Source of the DNA: Amoebidium appalachense
Lineage: Eukaryota; Protista; Ichthyosporea
Length of the DNA: 8,689 bases
Reading direction: 5' to 3'
NCBI GenBank assembly: GCA_963693365.1
Contig: CAVNZM010000097.1
Coordinates: forward strand, 1-8,689
In this document: positions 1-8,689 of the stretch, one piece after another
Layout of the letters: each line of letters opens with the position of its first letter
Numbering within the stretch: the stretch's first letter is position 1
Position numbers and translations under genes: made by a program
The notes under the pieces: generated by a model
What the model was told of the DNA's origin: nothing
Databases searched by the model: none
Seen by the model: only the letters and a program-made list of their open reading frames with translations

Positions 1-36
1 TCTCGCCCCCTCCTCCCTTCTTCTTACTCTAAGCTT
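1..36 (+). repeat. Left terminal inverted repeat (pairs with 7671-7706)
   Basis: tctcgccccctcc tcccttcttcttactctaagctt vs the reverse complement of 7671-7706, tctcgccccctcc ctctctactctttctctaggctt. First 13 bp identical; 28/36 identical ungapped. Confidence 0.85.
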
Positions 37-103
37 GTAGGGTAGGGAGGTGTAGATTCTACCATAGTTGGGTAGAGTTGAGATCTGGGACCCTAGTTTA
101 GGG

Positions 104-170
104 TTTCCGAGTGGCCGTCTTGGATTTCCGAGTGGCCGTCTTGGATTTCAGAGTGGCCGTCTTGGATTTC
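104..170. repeat. 21-bp tandem repeat x3 plus a partial copy (TTTCCGAGTGGCCGTCTTGGA)
   Basis: Units start at 104, 125 and 146, with a partial at 167. One substitution (c->a) in copy 3. Confidence 0.95.
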
Positions 171-459
171 ATGCACCAATTTAGGAAATTGATAAAAATA
201 TTAAATTGTAATTAACAAGTTTATAAGGGAAAATAAGGGTAAATAGGTTTTAAATTCTTGAGACAGACGTGACTAATCTGAAATTAGAGTTTTAGCCGAT
301 CAGGGACTGGAATTTATGAATTTTATAAGAATCTTAAATAGGTATTAAACATATTTCTTTTAACAATAGTTAACCTAGTACTCTTTGAGTGGAGACGTAT
401 TTTGGTTAATTCATTTGATTCATGAGTCTAATCTCTTATAGGTTGGAGCACCGCGAAAG

Positions 460-479
460 TTCCGTAGGCTTCCGTAGGT
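460..479. repeat. Short direct repeat TTCCGTAGG x2
   Basis: ttccgtaggc ttccgtaggt, 10-bp period. Confidence 0.7.
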
Positions 480-524
480 ACCAACTTCTGCTCTACTTAT
501 TTATCTAGTTTCTGTTAGGAATAT

Positions 525-960
525 AAGATGGAATTAAGCAATGTAACAACAAATAATGCAACCAATCGACACAAGACGATCTGAGATGAAACCAATATGG
601 AATTAAGCAATGTAACAATAAGTAACGCAATAAACTTATACTAGACAATCCAAGATGTAATCAAGCAAGGAAGCAAGGTAGTAATAATTAATAAACAACA
701 AAATACAGCACAATGGTACGAAATGAAGGCATGCATGCAAGCAATGTAACTACAAGCCATTCACAAATCTATACTAGACAATACGAGATGTAATCAAGAT
801 GGAATTAAGTAATGTAACAACAAACTTACCCTAGACGATACGAGATGGAATCTAGCAATGTAACAACAAGGAACTTAACAAACTTATACTAGACAATACG
901 AGATGGAATCTAGATGAAACCAAGCAATAAGCCTCCACAAGACGAGATGGAACCCATAAA
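525..960. repeat. A-rich degenerate mosaic repeat (modules AGATGGAATTAAGCAATGTAACAACAA and ACTTATACTAGACAATACGAGATG)
   Basis: 'gcaatgtaac'-type motifs recur near 538, 607, 741, 809 and 855. 'tatactagacaat' recurs near 637, 770 and 885. Confidence 0.85.
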
Positions 961-984
961 ACATAAAGATACAAGTGTAAATAA

Positions 985-1215
985 CAAGATACAATGATAC
1001 AAATGGAAATAACAATAAGCCGCAATAAGACGAAAAGGTAATGATACAATGGTATAAATGGAAGCGGCAATGGTACAAGGATACTAGGGTATAAATGGAA
1101 GCGGCAATGATACAATGATACAAGGGTATAAATGGAAGCAGTAATGTTACAATGGTATAAGGATACAACTGGTAGCAGTATGATCTAATGATACAAGTGG
1201 AAGCAGTAATAATAC
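985..1215. repeat. Degenerate tandem repeat GGTATAAATGGAAGC(G/A)GCAATG(A/G)TACAA
   Basis: 'gtataaatggaagc' occurs near 1052, 1089 and 1126, with diverged copies near 1000 and 1195. Confidence 0.85.
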
Positions 1216-1412
1216 AAATAGAAGAAACAAGACACAATCAGATGAATGAAAACAACGAGATGAAAGTCTTAAACCAAAAATGACATAATACAACGATACG
1301 AGATTGAAGCAAGCAGGCTATTAAGCAAGTGAGCAACAAATAATAAGTAAGAACATAAATGAAACAAGATGTAAAGAAATAAAGCAAGTAACAATTTGAT
1401 TTAAAATGAAAG

Positions 1413-1475
1413 TAAGTAAGTGATGAAAGCCATAAAGAAAGCAAGTAAGCGATGAAAGCCATAAAGGAAGTAAGC
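1413..1475. repeat. ~29-bp direct repeat AAGTAAG(T/C)GATGAAAGCCATAAAG x2
   Basis: Two near-identical adjacent copies plus a partial third (aagtaagc). Confidence 0.8.
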
Positions 1476-1724
1476 AATCATATTATTAGCATAACCTCTC
1501 CAAGCCGAAAGGACTTTTATCATTTTCCCCAAGTACCACTTATTTTGACACTCATATCCTGTACTCAGAACACTATTGATTATTGCATGCAAGAGCACCA
1601 CTGATTTCTGCATGATCACAATTTCTTCTTGCACCCCTGTTATTTATGTGTGCCTGGCCTACCGTGCGTGGTCACAATTTCTTCATGCATTCCTGTTATT
1701 CATACGCGCCCATATTCGATCTAT

Positions 1725-1895
1725 GCACTTATGCTCTACCATGCACGAGAAACTCGTTAACATCGATGATCCATTTATATTCAAAAAAGCTAAATAATAT
1801 TTATGATACGGAACCAGGGCCTAATAGCTCAGCTATGCTTCCCAAGGATCAGCTATTACAGGATTGTCAAAATGTATATATAAACACTCATGAGC
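1725..1895 (+). repeat. Inverted copy of the block at ~4535-4704 (and ~3645-3768)
   Basis: gcacttatgctctaccatgcacgagaaactcgttaacatcgatgatcc...gctaaataatatttatgatacggaaccagggcctaatagct aligns with the reverse complement of 4600-4704. Similarity continues to tgtatatataaaca (~1873-1886) vs tgtttatgtataca (~4543-4556). Flanking 1545-1720 also matches the 3150-5050 motif family in reverse. Confidence 0.9.
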
Positions 1896-2076
1896 ATTAC
1901 TAATTTATGTTATACACTTTGCATTTCCAAAGTACCACTGACTTATGTCATACACTTAGAGTACCATTAATTTTGGTACTTCTGTTATTCATGCGCCCAT
2001 ACTATGTACTCGCATGCGCACCAATGCTATGTTCTCGCAGAGTTCTTACTACTCTAACAGTACGAGAGTTTCAGTA

Positions 2077-2132
2077 GAGCTTTCTCGCTAAGAGAAAAGT
2101 CTTATGTTTTGTCCTCATACGACGATAAGCTC
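2077..2132. repeat. Double-hairpin element, copy 1 (56 bp)
   Basis: gagctttctcgctaagagaaaagtcttatgttttgtcctcatacgacgataagctc. Confidence 0.85.
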
Positions 2133-2239
2133 GTTTGGATTCGCAAGGCTGTTTTATAATCCAATAGATAATATTTATGCTACGAAATGAAAGCTTGTTA
2201 ACTTTAATTAGGGGATCTGATGGGTATTAAACAATAGCT

Positions 2240-2413
2240 TAAGCTAGCTTGGGATGGTATCCTTGTGCATAAGGCGAATTGTGTAAGCTAGCTTGGGATG
2301 GTATCTTTGTACATAAGGCGATTTGCCTAGAACAGCTTGGGATGATATCGCTGTACCCAAGACGAATTGCCTAAATTAGCTTTAGATGATATCTCTGTGC
2401 ACAAGATGAATTG
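2240..2413. repeat. 44-bp tandem repeat x4, progressively diverged
   Basis: 'agctt(g/t)(g/a)gatg(g/a)tatc...tgt.c..aag..ga.ttg' starts at 2246, 2290, 2334 and 2378, an exact 44-bp period. Confidence 0.9.
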
Positions 2414-2442
2414 GTAATCTGGTGAGCCCAAGAGTCTTTCTT

Positions 2443-2499
2443 GAGCTTTTTCGCTAAGAGAAAAGTCTTATGCTCTCATCATCATACGATGACAAGCTC
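2443..2499. repeat. Double-hairpin element, copy 2 (57 bp)
   Basis: gagctttttcgctaagagaaaagtcttatgctctcatcatcatacgatgacaagctc. A truncated, diverged copy follows at ~2518-2546. Confidence 0.85.
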
Positions 2500-2624
2500 G
2501 TTGTGAGAGTCTCGCTTGAGCCTTATCGCTAAGGAACTATCTTATGTTTTTGGAAAATTCTCCTTACTCGTACAAGGTGAATTTGGACTCTGAGGAGCCC
2601 AAGCTTGTTGTGAGAGTCTCTAAA

Positions 2625-2681
2625 GAGCTTTCTCGCTAAGAGAAGAGTCTTATGCTCTTGTCAGCATACGACGACAAGCTC
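2625..2681. repeat. Double-hairpin element, copy 3 (57 bp)
   Basis: gagctttctcgctaagagaagagtcttatgctcttgtcagcatacgacgacaagctc. Confidence 0.85.
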
Positions 2682-2828
2682 GTCTAGAACTCGTAACTCG
2701 CCGATGTCTTCTGGTGAACTATCTCTTGATAGATTGTTTATAGGTGGAAGGTCTCTTGGAGTAGTCGTCATGCCTTGATGTAAACTCTCTTATGCTTTGG
2801 TTATCTGGTAATCCCAAAAATCTCTGAA

Positions 2829-2885
2829 GAGCCTTCTCGCTAAGAGAAGAGTCTTATGCTCTTGTCATCATACGACAACAAGCTC
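2829..2885. repeat. Double-hairpin element, copy 4 (57 bp)
   Basis: gagccttctcgctaagagaagagtcttatgctcttgtcatcatacgacaacaagctc. Confidence 0.85.
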
Positions 2886-3059
2886 GTTATGCACTCGCAA
2901 CTCATTGAGAACTCGCATGCGGAACTAGGTTAATTATGAGCTTTTGGTTACTTACACGCTTGTAAACTGGTTTGACAATTAATGGAGCTAAATTAACTGT
3001 GAACTGTTGATTACTTAGACTTTCGAGAACTAGTTAGATGGTTAGCTTGTATTAATATA

Positions 3060-3117
3060 TCGCCAATGTGTCGCCAATGTGTTGCTATTGTGTCGCCTAG
3101 GTTAGGCAATGTGTCGT
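3060..3117. repeat. 11-bp tandem repeat CGCCAATGTGT (degenerate)
   Basis: cgccaatgtgt cgccaatgtgt tgctattgtgt cgcc...ggcaatgtgtcg. Confidence 0.8.
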
Positions 3118-3269
3118 CATTAATGTGTGTATTTTAATTTTAGGGTATATGCTCTTAGATACATGGCATGAAGAGGATCGTGCATGAATCAGTGAGGTTC
3201 TTGGGAACATAACATAAGGCATTAATGATTGGAACTCTTAGATACATAGCATGAGTGCATAAAACAATT

Positions 3270-3780
3270 ATAATCATGAAGTAATCAGTGGTATTCTTGG
3301 GTACATGAATCAATTTGGATCATGGAGAACCTTATCGCTCTTAGGTCTCATGATCGTTATGGCAGTTCATAGTTCTTCATAGTTCTTTATAGATCTCATA
3401 GCTATTACTGTATACTTATTCGTAATCATGCATAGATTTCATGGGAGTTCATAGTTCTTCATAAATCTCATAGTAATCCATAGTTCTTCACGGTAGTTTA
3501 TGAATCTCATTACTATTGATGTACATTTCTTTGCAATCATATATGAGTTTTATTGTTATTTATGTAAGGGTCTTATTGTTACTTAGGGTTCACATGCCTG
3601 TCCATGTATGCTTTTTAGCTATAATGTAATAGACAACTCTTAGTCATCATGGATGAGCTACTAGGCCCTAATTTTGTACCATGAATATTATTTAGCTTTC
3701 TTAAATATCGGGGGGGGGGGGATCAGCGATGTTAATGAGTTACTCGTGCATATCATAACATAAGTACATGAATCAATAGG
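3270..3780 (+). repeat. Large direct-repeat block, copy A (copy B ~4295-4715, partial copy C ~4950-5045)
   Basis: A and B share the same order: atcatg.agtaatcagt...ttcttgggtaca.gaatcaatttggatc...gctcttaggt, then the catagttctt decamer array, then tcatggat.agcta.taggccct...cgatgttaatgagt...gtgcata...cataagtaca.gaatcaat. Confidence 0.85.
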
Positions 3781-3800
3781 TATCGGGGATGAATACATAG

Positions 3801-3900
3801 CATGAGTGCGAATGCCTGAATCAAATGTGGTTATGTATGATATGAGTGCGAATGCATGAATCAAAGGTGATTATGTATGACATGAGTGCGAATACAGGAA
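3801..3900. repeat. 40-bp tandem repeat x2.5
   Basis: (c/t)atgagtgcgaatgc(c/a)tgaatcaaa(t/g)gtg(g/a)ttatgtatga starts at 3801 and 3841, with a partial at 3881. Confidence 0.9.
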
Positions 3901-4294
3901 TTAATTATGATTACGCACGGTATTGCATGAATATATGAATAACAGAAGTGTAAAATTTAATGAGGGCTCTGGGTGTATGATATAAGTATATAAATTAAGG
4001 GGGGGGGGGGGCTCTAGGTATATGCCAAGAGTACATGGCATTAATACGCATGCGAGTACATAGTATGGGCGCATGAATAGCATAAGTATATGAATCGATT
4101 GAGATCGTGCAGGAATCCGGGGTGCTTTTGAGTATATGCAGGCCTTACATAAATGCAGGAAGAAATTGTGATCGTGCAGGAATTAATGGTGTTCTTGGAT
4201 ATATCAATCAATTATGATCATGCAAGACATAACAAGGAATGCATAGATAAAGAGTGATCGCGTATGACATGAGTGTGGCTGCAGGGATCATTTA

Positions 4295-4715
4295 TAATCA
4301 TGCAGTAATCAGTAGAATTCTTGGGTACAAGAATCAATTTGGATCGTAGACAACCTTGTTGCTCTTAGGTTTAGTGACAATTCATAAATTTCATAACAGT
4401 TCATAGTTTTTCATGGATCTCATAGCAGTCCATAATTTTTCATGGATCTTATAACAGTTCATAGTTCTTCATAGTTCTTCATGGTAGTTCATAGATTTCA
4501 GGGCATTTCATGCATCTCATGGCAGTTCATAGATTTCATAGCTGTTTATGTATACATCTTAACACTAATGTAATAAACAAGTCTTAACGATCATGGATAA
4601 GCTATTAGGCCCTGATTTCGTATCATAAATGTTGTTTAGCTTATTTGAATTAAAATGAATCATCGATGTTAATGAGTCCCTTGTGCATAGCAGAGCATAA
4701 GTACAAGAATCAATT
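4295..4715 (+). repeat. Large direct-repeat block, copy B
   Basis: See copy A. Contains a 10-bp-period CATAGTTCTT/CATGGATCT/CATAGATTT array at ~4383-4541. Confidence 0.85.
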
Positions 4716-5087
4716 GTGATCGTACACGGTAAGACATGAGTGTATAAAGAAATTGTGATCGTGCAGAAATCAATTTGGATCGTGCAGGAATCCGTGATGT
4801 TCTTGAGTGCATAGATAATAGAAGTGCTTAAATTAATTATGATTGCGCACAGAATGCCATGAATACATAGTATTGATGCGCACAGGAATAACATGCGTGT
4901 AAGGATCAATAGGGATACTGACGAAGTACATAAGTGCAGAGATCAATTTGGATCATGCAGTAATCAGTGATGTTCTTGGGTACAAGAATCAATTGGGATA
5001 GGGAACAGCCATAATGCTCTTAAGTCTTATAGCTGTAGATACATTCATCACATTTGAATCAATTCAAGAAAAAGGAGCTTAGATGCG

Positions 5088-5200
5088 TCTTCCATTTGTC
5101 TTTCACCTATTGATACATTTATGCCTCTTATAATCAATCCAAGAGATAGGTGTTCATATGCTTCCTTCATTTGTCTTTTACCTATTGACACATTCATTTC
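5088..5200. repeat. ~30-bp direct repeat x2 (CATTTGTCTTT(C/T)ACCTATTGA(T/C)ACATT)
   Basis: Copies at ~5093-5119 and ~5168-5194. Confidence 0.8.
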
Positions 5201-5811
5201 TTATAATATATTCTTTCGTCTCTTACTAATAAATCATGCCTCCGAACCATATCTTCATATAACATACTTTCTCTAGCTTACCGATTTTCAAATTGCTTCT
5301 TGAAAGTTCTCATCGCAACAAAAATAGATTAATATAATAGTGAGGAAATCCTTTACTTTTCACTCTAAATGATTGGTGCAAAACCTGAAAATTTAGGGTT
5401 CAGGATGTCGAAAGCAAAGGGAGGGGTACTTTTTCAAAACTGCGCCCATCTAAAGGAAATAACTTTCCGTAGATAGTGATAGAACTATAGAACAAAATAT
5501 TTAATTGCTTCATAGAATTAACTTATCAAACCTTAATTTGATTTAGTTAAACAAGGCATGTGTACCCCTATATACATATGGTCCGATAAAGCACTAATTC
5601 CCCCTATAAATTAGCGTCTAAGTGATCCGAGTGATCTCATTGATCGACTCTCCTATGTCACGAAGCAAACTTTATCATCTTCCTTTTATAAAGCTCTTAA
5701 ATCTTTTTTCTATAAAGTTATAATAATACTAGTTAGTATGTTTTACAACGTCTAGACCTATTAACTTTCAGTTATTCCCTTTTTTATATACACTAGATGA
5801 ATGAATGTCTC

Positions 5812-5858
5812 CTCTGTTTTACCAGAGAAAGTTTTACCTCTCAACTAGGAGAGGTGAA
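5812..5858 (-). terminator. Tandem stem-loops just 3' of the rps3 stop (putative transcript end or processing signal)
   Basis: ACCTCTC-aactag-GAGAGGT (5836-5855, perfect 7-bp stem) lies ~15 nt downstream of the stop. CTCTG-ttttac-CAGAG (5812-5827) is adjacent. Function is inferred from position only. Confidence 0.5.
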
Positions 5859-5869
5859 GTTACTATTTA

Positions 5870-7369
5870 TTAACGAAGAAAAATCTTTAATCCAATAGCA
5901 CCTAATTTAGTAAAGATAGTAGAAGAAGAATATTGAGAAGGTATAGTTAAAGAAGATAAGGAAAGATTACCATAGTGCGCTGAGAAGTGTTTAGCACGAG
6001 CAGATTTACCACCACGACCTGGAAGTCTTCCTGAAAGATAAAGACGAATACCTTTAAATTTAAGCAATGATAATTCCATAAGTAATAAATGATCTAAAAT
6101 ACTTTTTAAAACTAGAGAAATAAAGTAAGATTTAGCATAAAGAGTAGATAAAGAAGAAAGTTGTAGAAATAAAGTATAAATGGAAAAAGCGGAAGAAACT
6201 AATTGAATAAAGAAAGGATGAAGTTTAAAATAGAGAAGAACTTTTGTAATAGCAGAAGTAGAAATAGTAGAAGAAAGAGGTTGCATAACTAAAGTAGACT
6301 TCTGGAGAGAAAATAAGTATAAATTTAAGAGATTAAAATTTGAAGAAGTAATAGGTGTAGAAGAAGTCCCAACTACTTTAACTTTGAGAAGATTAATATG
6401 CTTATTAGTATGTAAATTGGTATGAGTCGTAAAAATAGTATTACAATTTAATGAAGGAGAAACTGGATAGGCTTTAACAATATAAATTAATAAACTAGTA
6501 ATTCAAAGTAAATAAATACGTCTAAAGTGTTTTAATCCAATTCAATCGTAATGTTGTAATGGCTGTAAGAAATCTAACCCTTTGTTTAGATTTTTATATT
6601 TATTAATAACCGTATTGAATATTCTTTTATATTCCTTTCTTTTTAAAATTCATGATGTAATATAACGCCCAATTAATTGTGAACTATGAATTCAAGGTTC
6701 AATTTGTTGTACATGAATTATAATATTTACATCTTTCACATATATAAGTAAATTTTCATATATTGTATTTAAAACCCTTTGTAAATCTTGTTTTCTTCTA
6801 CCTCGTGGATTGTCCCTAAGTTCGTTACTAACTAAACTTGTTTTGTATGCAGTTTTATTTCATAATTTATCTTTCTTTACTTTTTTTCTATTTATTTTGT
6901 TTTTATATTCTAAAAATGTTACTTTTCGTAATCGTTTTACTTCATTAAGCGAACTTTCATTAGAAGAATCTAATTGTTTATTATTATTCTTAGTATCAAT
7001 TATATTTTTAATATTATCATTTCATCCTTTAATTACAATTTGATCAAGCTGTAAAGTTATATTTTTTAATCTTTCGGATTTCTTTTTCATACCTAGTATT
7101 AAATGTTTAATTCCAATTAAAGAGTTTCCTTTTTTAATTGGTTCGACTTCTTTTTCTACTTGAATAATGATACTCATATCTTTTATTTTTCTTTTAATTA
7201 TAATTTCACCTACGCTATACCCTTGTGCTTCCATTGTTCCTTTTATATATTCTCTAATTAACATGTCTCTATATAAAAGTGTTCCATATTCTGTTTCAGG
7301 GCATTTTCATATCACTCTATAATTTCTTTGTGCACTTAATTTACTTTTATTTATATTTATTCTATTCAT
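5870..7369 (-). CDS. rps3: Mitochondrial-type ribosomal protein S3 (uS3m), 499 aa, TGA=Trp (table 4-like), with a long central insertion
   Basis: Hand translation: ATG at 7369-7367 (in-frame TAG upstream at 7384-7382) runs with no TAA/TAG to TAA at 5872-5870, followed by a second TAA at 5869-5867. In-frame TGA codons at + positions 7307, 7022, 6860, 6692, 6650, 6542 and 6503. N-terminal 'VIWKCPETEYGTLLYRDMLIREYIKG' fits the uS3 W...Y..LL..D..IR.YI motif, with the W encoded by TGA. C-terminal 'KGIRLYLSGRLPGRGGKSARAK...YGNLSL...QYSSSTIFTKLGAIGLKIFL' is the uS3 C-terminal domain of mitochondrial type. Confidence 0.9.
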
Positions 7370-7670
7370 CCTTTCTCTTTCCTACTATTGAATAATTTAA
7401 TTCCATTCCCAAATACTCTTATCTTGAATGGTACCTAATATTAAATTATTTAATTCTACTCCTATCATAACATTGAATAATTTTATTCTACTCCTAATGT
7501 AATATTAAGATAGCACTAAATTCCCTTCTATCTGTAATAAATAAGTTAATTAAATATTTAAGGTTTTTATTGATATCATAAATCCAACTCCTGATCTGCT
7601 AAAACTCCGATTTTGATAATTTACCATTATCTGGATTTAGGATTGTAGTTATCATCTTATATCGTGACAG

Positions 7671-7706
7671 AAGCCTAGAGAAAGAGTAGAGAGGGAGGGG
7701 GCGAGA
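7671..7706 (-). repeat. Right terminal inverted repeat (pairs with 1-36)
   Basis: aagcctagagaaagagtagagagggagggggcgaga is an imperfect reverse complement of bases 1-36. It lies about 40 bp before the telomeric tract. Confidence 0.85.
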
Positions 7707-7746
7707 TGAAATAACTAGACTGGGCCCCTGGGAACTTTGAACTCTC

Positions 7747-8352
7747 AAACCCTAAACCTAAACCCTAAACCTAAACCTAAACCTAAACCCTAAACCTAAA
7801 CCTAAACCTAAACCTAAACCTAAACCTAAACCCTAACCCTAAACCTAAACCATAAACCTAAAACCTATAAACCTAAACCTAAGCCTAAACCTAAGGCACC
7901 TAAACCCTAAACCACACTAAACCTAAACCAAAAATAAGCCTAAACCCTAAAAACCTAACCCTAAACCTAAACCTAAACCTAAAACCTAAACCTAAACCTA
8001 AACCTAAACCTAAACGAAACCTAAAAAAAGCCTAAACCTAAACCTAAACCAAAAAAATAAGCCTAAACCTAAACCCCTAAACCTAAACCTAAGCCTAACC
8101 CTAAACCTAAACCAAAAGGTAAACCTAAACCCTAAACCCTAAACCCTAAACCCTAAAACCTAAACCCTAAACCCTAAACCCTAAACCCTAAACCCTAAAC
8201 CCTAAACCCTAAACCCTAAACCCCTAAACCCTAAACCCTAAACCCTAAACCCTAAACCCTAAACCCTAAACCCTAAACCCTAAACCCTAAACCCTAAACC
8301 CTAAACCCTAAACCCTAAACCCTAAAGCCTAAACCCTAAACCCTAACCCTAA
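7747..8352 (+). repeat. Telomeric repeat tract, C-rich strand on +: mainly CCTAAA with variants (7747-~8126), near-perfect CCCTAAA (~8127-8340), ending in CCCTAA x2
   Basis: Directly visible. The reverse complement is TTTAGG/TTTAGGG; TTTAGGG is the Arabidopsis-type telomere repeat. Confidence 0.95.
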
Positions 8353-8355
8353 CCC

Positions 8356-8467
8356 CACACAAACACACACACACAAACACACACACGCAAACACGCACCC
8401 ACAAAAACAGAAACACATACACGACGGTCACACCACACACAGAAACACAAACACACACACAGACACA
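8356..8467. repeat. Imperfect (CA)n microsatellite
   Basis: acacaaacacacacacacaaacacacacacgc... interrupted CA runs. Confidence 0.9.
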
Positions 8468-8470
8468 CGG

Positions 8471-8478
8471 TCTCTCTT

Positions 8479-8554
<76 letters not shown>
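8471..8554. repeat. (CT)n microsatellite, followed by C17 (8573-8589) and A10 (8590-8599)
   Basis: Directly visible. Confidence 0.95.
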
Positions 8555-8559
<5 letters not shown>

Positions 8560-8689
8560 CCCCCTCTCCCCTCCCCCCCCCCCCCCCCCAAAAAAAAAAC
8601 TGCAATTGAACACCCAAACGGAAGCTTCAATTCAGACCCAGAGACATTATTCTTTTTCCAGCGCCAACTGCGAGGTAATGTAGAGTATG

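Follow-up and report, generated by a model that had tools for sequence, protein, structure and literature searches.

The window, that is, the whole stretch of 8,689 nucleotides of Amoebidium appalachense contig CAVNZM010000097.1, was found to contain one predicted gene within a molecule whose ends are shared with other molecules, followed on the right by a telomere-like tail. The features are given below from left to right.

1 to 36, forward strand: left arm of the terminal inverted repeat, apparently clipped, beginning at the complement of 7706
260 to 518, no strand: left subterminal block common to many molecules, a candidate end-specific conserved block (bounds are bin bounds)
520 to 5860, no strand: non-coding interior with short dispersed direct and inverted repeats (families D4-D20 and I1-I10)
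5870 to 7369, reverse strand: rps3, predicted mitochondrial ribosomal protein S3 of 499 aa, open under table 4 with TGA read as Trp
7607 to 7697, no strand: right subterminal block, shared and variable between molecules, with depth rising from 7607
7698 to 7729, forward strand: shared terminal repeat of mitochondrial chromosomes, delimited by contig depth and converging flanks
7730 to 7746, forward strand: window-specific junction letters (17 nt), which differ from the CGAAC continuation of the contigs
7747 to 8129, forward strand: degenerate telomere-like tract found by repeat analysis, mainly CCTAAA 6-mers with irregular units
8130 to 8356, forward strand: near-perfect CCCTAAA tract with perfect runs of 4, 8 and 15 units, the last two units being CCCTAA
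8356 to 8599, forward strand: succession of simple repeats, namely (CA)n at 8356-8468, (TC)n at 8471-8554, a C run at 8560-8589 and an A run at 8590-8599
8600 to 8689, no strand: complex sequence of 90 nt with 5-mer complexity 0.98 and GC 0.44

The coding potential of the window was analysed. The reading frame at 5870-7369 is intact under table 4, in accordance with the earlier note, and broken under table 11. Its Trp codons comprise seven TGA and no TGG, and two of these, codons 21 and 289, fall on Trp positions conserved in relatives. The Pfam family Ribosomal_S3_C matched the frame with an E value of 5e-4 and 21 bits, which is below the curated cut-off of 34.1. A protein search against 1.84 billion representatives gave 36 matches at E<=0.001, the best having 34-39% identity (36-39% to full-length proteins); none of the 10 matches looked up was informatively named. 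An ORF of a related metagenome contig (L002) also matched rps3 (BLASTP E values of 8e-19 and 9e-13), and the ORFs flanking this homologue are presumably rps12 and rps19 before it and atp9 after it. Owing to the Pfam match, the use of TGA as Trp and the homologue lying amid rps12-, rps19- and atp9-like ORFs, the frame is, on the evidence of its sequence, mitochondrial rps3 and the sole credible gene of the window.

L002 (positions 1-7499) is itself a conventional multi-gene mitochondrial contig with tRNA-Met and tRNA-Gln and without terminal inverted repeats; a further ORF is taken by us to be a GIY-YIG-like endonuclease. Relatives with the long type of rps3 need not have fragmented genomes. 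An 89-aa protein (P0005) encoded on a 1649-nt contig showed 66% identity to residues 36-102 of rps3, and it is likely a closer relative, cut at a TGA by gene calling under table 11.

The coding share is about 19% of positions 1-7729. No tRNA genes were found in the non-coding interior, and no Rfam family matched it at E<=1. In this otherwise AT-rich interior, 12 consecutive G occur at 3710-3721 and 13 at 3999-4011, the first run of G being one base shorter in run X1. A short hairpin-forming stretch at 81-106 includes one TTTAGGG unit at 97, and a 21-nt tandem repeat with 3.2 copies (97%) lies at 104-170. A second inverted pair was observed at 281-314 and 7580-7613 (34 nt, 79%), its distances to the two ends being unequal.

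The presence of the window in public sequencing runs, which exist as contigs and not as raw reads, was then examined by alignment. Of 20 listed runs, 18 contain the window wholly or partly; these belong to five studies, plus four rows lacking a study entry. Six runs were aligned (X1, X2, X4, X5, X7 and X8) over positions 1-7770 and 7600-7780 only, and the low-share runs X14-X18, which carry no evidential weight, were left out. The study of X1 (P1) is possibly that of the source sample, while X4, X7 and X8 come from other studies. Alignment of positions 1-7770 to the contigs showed all 30 bins covered in four of four runs, from four studies (P1-P4). The eight listed pieces of X1 (4556 nt) have no other letters and one gap against the window, and those of X4 (eight pieces, 4876 nt) have two other letters and nine gaps. 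The numbers of records running past the ends of 1-7770 were 9, 2, 4 and 0; the end concerned is unspecified, hence these counts were not used. A real mitochondrial molecule is represented by bases 1 to about 7730; it bears the single gene rps3 and a terminal repeat common to many other molecules. In X7, C>T changes were observed at 81 places and G>A changes at 43, the pattern expected of a base-converted library; the converted places include CpG sites, for example 3024 and 5218, which fits unmethylated organellar DNA.

The summed contig depth over 1-7770 is much greater near both ends than in the interior, which fits many molecules having those blocks in common. The depth of 260-518 reached 8388 in X1 and 5441 in X4, against about 150-300 and 27-100, respectively, in many interior bins, and divergent loose ends of contigs are abundant at 436-484. 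Two distinct shared subterminal blocks, 260-518 and 7607-7697, were each seen in contig depth. Nine variable places lie within 7669-7694, where up to 66 X5 contigs carry another letter. Together with the gene content and the repeats, this profile makes the body of the window probably one linear chromosome of an Amoebidium-type mitochondrial genome of many chromosomes, and an ichthyosporean origin is rated as probable.

The summed depth was also raised at the internal blocks 5440-5957 and 2332-3108 (in X1 up to 2796 and 4696, respectively, against about 150-300 elsewhere), and owing to this rise both blocks would be common to other molecules. The block 5440-5957 is situated immediately downstream of the stop of rps3 and is a possible 3' conserved block. 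In contigs of X1, X4 and X8, position 482 was found joined to 7592 with few letters between, the two sides having only 21-26 letters. Such a join would correspond to a chromosome of about 0.65 kb that is 'empty' and consists of just the two end blocks. Amoebidium is known to have small chromosomes that lack genes.

The right end of the body was analysed with the alignment to 7600-7780, in which X1, X2 and X5 represent one sample and X4 a second. The inverted terminal pair 1-36 and 7671-7706 (78% complementary), followed by CCTAAA and CCCTAAA repeats on the forward strand at 7747-8356 and by CA and TC microsatellites, is present as the earlier note had described. Its placing of the end of the terminal inverted repeat at 7706 has to be corrected, as the shared repeat continues to 7729 and is among the deepest-covered positions of 7600-7780 in four of four runs. 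The summed depth at 7698-7718 is 205-530 times that of the 7600-7606 bin in four of four runs; at 7705-7711 the ratio to the same flank is 212 (X1), 314 (X2), 523 (X4) and 246 (X5). Summed contig depth is no copy number, and the contig counts are concordant with it. Individual pieces extend to 7722-7729, such as X2 record 16 and X4 record 23; the listed pieces pass 7706 by up to 23 letters, and none satisfies the 31-letter bridging rule. The apparent end of the repeat at 7706 is probably due to clipping of the window's left arm at the corresponding base, and the outer part of the left arm (the equivalent of 7707-7729 and beyond) would thus be missing from the window. What had been read as about 40 bp of unique linker therefore consists of the shared terminus at 7707-7729 and of a window-specific part that is only the 17 nt of 7730-7746. 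An adapter origin of 7707-7729 was considered and rejected, since this is native shared sequence.

Numerous different flanks converge at 7688-7694 onto the shared end. Among them are left-type flanks, which correspond to the window's left end in reverse complement and join the end block at 7694 (4 records in X1, 1 in X4 and 44 in X5). These flanks share only about 13 letters with 7694-7706 and so must, we infer, align onward into the former linker, which suggests that both end types carry that sequence. Beyond the repeat, two X4 records diverge from the window at 7729 and 24 X5 records at 7728, in both cases with CGAAC as the next letters. The loose ends are short, with a median of 11 letters in X4 and 14 in X5; past the five shared letters those of X5 are heterogeneous and A-rich, with an agreement of 0.51 across the full consensus. 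The molecule would accordingly end physically 5-11 nt past 7729, although proof of an end cannot come from contigs. In X4, the five final letters of the loose end equal the start of the Illumina adapter, but they are also a repetition of a motif at 7713-7719. A hairpin at the terminus found no support (z of -0.78 and 0.09). An exact search with a 30-nt piece of the terminal repeat gave no matches in metagenome_contigs and none in viral_contigs.

The junction at 7730-7746 did not match the body above shuffles, and its best match, to 96-112, equals the shuffle maximum. It probably consists of a few final native bases, rendered noisily, and about ten unexplained bases. A native origin of everything past the terminal repeat was also considered, namely a C-rich heterogeneous extension made by an organellar end-maintenance enzyme. 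The heterogeneity of the X5 loose ends after the terminus is consistent with it, as is the occurrence of the TTTAGGG unit in the body at 97, 3139 and 5392. However, no CCTAAA units occur in the loose ends of X4 and X5, which are short, the junction match to 96-112 does not exceed shuffles, and CA and TC microsatellites followed by complex sequence are not addable by a template-driven enzyme. A native extension is therefore regarded as highly improbable.

The composition of the tail was analysed further. The C-rich array at 7747-8356 was reported by TRF with period 7, 91.9 copies and a score of 622. The tokens in 7747-8125 are 31 CCTAAA against 7 CCCTAAA, with many irregular units, while those in 8126-8356 are 26 CCCTAAA against 2 CCTAAA. 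The irregular units recur, an AATAAG-containing unit being present at 7928 and 8049. The tail passes through five simple-repeat classes, its onset lies no more than about 17 nt from where the contigs diverge, and it stops after about 960 nt; only 22 G occur among the 853 nt of 7747-8599. The last part, 8600-8689, showed no match to the body above shuffles, and 8590-8689 gave only chance-level matches to plasmids (E 0.07) and phages (E 0.3). A fold-back (hairpin) read was tried as an origin and rejected: with four tail segments compared to both strands of the body, none of eight tests was above the shuffle maximum and one equalled it.

These features could be produced by base-calling noise, in which, beyond the physical end of a possibly blocked or structured molecule, the signal is called as a drift through simple repeats. 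The unbroken succession of five simple-repeat classes with so few G, the onset of the tail at the inferred physical end and the heterogeneous, A-rich X5 loose ends at 7728 all agree with such an origin, and nanopore base-callers do exchange repeat types and unit lengths, as described in the part of PMC9414165 that was available. The last 90 nt are nevertheless of normal complexity, the CCCTAAA run is long and clean, and all eight fold-back tests speak against the tail being a garbled copy of the body. A narrow literature search also found no paper on such tails at blocked ends. Noise of this kind is considered possible, at a rather low probability.

The orientation of the array bears on the remaining explanations. 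The tract is C-rich on the forward strand and thus cannot cap the right end of the rps3 molecule, where the G-rich strand would have to run outward; the earlier argument that a telomerase cap at this end would be G-rich on the forward strand is right. Telomeres usually carry perfect repeats distally and variant repeats proximally. With the array read as a left chromosome tip, the irregular CCTAAA-rich zone precedes the perfect zone, which puts the degenerate part on the would-be tip and the perfect part proximally. This polarity is the reverse of the usual one, and read errors could cause the reversal. As regards telomere type, the literature search found no paper combining TTTAGGG with ichthyosporean telomeres; Creolimax is placed among species with telomere repeats of a non-human type in the available portion of PMC7857110. 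The accessible parts of PMC11286789, PMC3673629, PMC12695648 and PMC3268669 contain no detail on Amoebidium termini or telomeres.

The left-tip orientation fits a fusion inside the cell, in which an entire mitochondrial mini-chromosome would have become attached to a nuclear telomere lacking its cap, as a terminal NUMT of very recent date that may be confined to a minority of cells. Such a NUMT would match the mtDNA exactly, and a minority event would not show, as contigs drop rare variants. An unexplained observation on the same side is the summed depth of X5 at 7733-7739, which is 627.6 or 0.13 of the X5 flank depth; variant termini aligning onward may account for it. The depth of 0 at 7733-7739 in X1, X2 and X4 and at 7740-7780 in four of four runs says nothing on absence, because repeats were skipped in the alignment (41 repeat letters in X5 and the repeats at 7740-7780 in X1) and rare variants are dropped from contigs. 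Against the fusion, the window stops 90 nt past the repeats with no chromosome following, a mitochondrial end that is bare and clipped would form the new tip, and the contigs of two samples continue otherwise at 7729. Telomere fusions usually come after telomere loss, hence the retention of about 610 nt of telomere repeat at the join also counts against it. The fusion is accordingly judged unlikely. The geometry of the end-to-end join proposed in the earlier note, a mitochondrial end followed by telomere-type repeats of the C strand, stands, but its junction had been placed wrongly. Capture at a telomere as a recent NUMT received no positive support, the linker on which it relied being the molecule's own shared terminus. 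The intact ORF, which had been taken as a sign of recency, is uninformative about nuclear residence since the letters of the body are those of deeply covered contigs.

The alternative offered in the same note, a ligation or assembly chimera, is now the favoured reading. According to it, the body is a real mitochondrial chromosome and the tail is a library-preparation chimera kept by the assembler from one or a few long reads; this is held with moderate confidence. After end repair, an abundant natural mitochondrial end would have been joined by ligation to a nuclear fragment bearing a telomere, at the C-strand start of the latter. A blunted telomere end joined to a natural mitochondrial end would give the C-strand start in the observed orientation, and the depth of 7600-7780 suggests that, among the natural ends of such a library, mitochondrial termini would have been the most abundant. 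The tail would then have stayed unpolished and been cut shortly past the low-complexity part, and the deletion-rich CCTAAA zone is proposed to result from the lack of polishing.

Several observations support this reading. The body is unaltered across runs and studies, the former linker is the shared end, and the contigs of two samples from two studies depart from the window at one place and have the five following letters in common, which differ from those of the window. The polarity of the repeats, degenerate at the would-be tip, is reversed. The left side has no nuclear flank and the right side has just 90 nt of complex sequence. The tail further begins where a read crossing the whole molecule would end. 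In published work, misassembled contigs arose from single chimeric long reads and telomeric repeats confounded the assembler (10.1101/866020, the part available), and repeats of different unit length are miscalled for one another in nanopore data (PMC9414165, likewise in part). The chimera is ranked above base-calling noise because the 15-unit run is clean and the final 90 nt are complex. Against the chimera stand the following observations: the X5 depth at 7733-7739, where a junction-bearing contig is possible; the 15 consecutive perfect CCCTAAA units, which are cleaner than expected of a poor read; and the recurrent irregular units, as real variant repeats could show. Taking ligation chimera and base-calling noise together, the tail is very probably an artefact of either kind. 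The proposed fusion to a nuclear chromosome is likely spurious.

The results describe a real mitochondrial chromosome, likely of an already known kind, in which the supposed unique linker is the shared terminal repeat. This repeat, located at 7698-7729 plus a few bases, can be used for collecting other chromosomes. Mitochondrial contigs of many-chromosome genomes may bear spurious telomere tails as well as clipped ends, and both mimic NUMTs or telomere-to-telomere contigs. It is improbable that organellar chromosome ends serve here as substrates for nuclear end-joining, with an intact mini-chromosome fused at a nuclear telomere in living cells. If true, such a fusion would be a one-step direct route of gene transfer to chromosome tips, and an entire organellar chromosome would have been caught moving to a nuclear tip, a testable NUMT route in organisms with linear mtDNA.

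The findings were compared with known systems. In Drechmeria coniospora a contig was misassembled from a single chimeric read and telomeric repeats at contig ends confused the assembler (10.1101/866020); as far as the available part of that paper goes, the case was demonstrated on raw reads, whereas the proposed chimera of the window is seen in contigs. The miscalling of repeat units in length, likewise demonstrated on raw reads, resembles the tail of the window, although a CCCTAAA-to-CCTAAA miscall is not named in the available part of PMC9414165. Like a NUMT or an interstitial telomeric sequence formed by end fusion or break repair, the window has mitochondrial DNA adjoining telomere-type repeats in tip orientation. 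A NUMT is embedded in nuclear DNA, whereas the body of the window is bordered by the terminal-repeat arm on the left and by simple repeats and 90 nt on the right. Unlike a NUMT, the window has no nuclear flank beyond 90 nt on either side and no decay, and its join has no independent support.

The chromosomes of the Amoebidium parasiticum mitochondrion reach about 8 kb in size, and their terminal repeat measures about 40 nt. In mtDNA of this type, genes are transcribed from the end-specific 5' block towards the 3' block. The mtDNA of this species is divided into several hundred linear chromosomes with about 20% coding sequence, UGA read as Trp and rps3 among the genes, as given in the available part of PMC7027106. 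Its chromosomes each have terminal repeats in inverted arrangement, together with 5' and 3' sequences of identical orientation, according to the accessible text of PMC2518934 and also of PMC8303319 and PMC7194472. The telomere-like extension sets the window apart from A. parasiticum mtDNA as far as these sources describe it. In architecture, by which the two were compared rather than by sequence, the window resembles that mtDNA in having one rps3, TGA read as Trp and a coding share of about 19%, within the description accessible in those sources. Its terminal sequence is likewise common to many molecules with distinct flanks, in four of four runs, and the terminal repeat is inverted at both ends of the window, the left arm being clipped.
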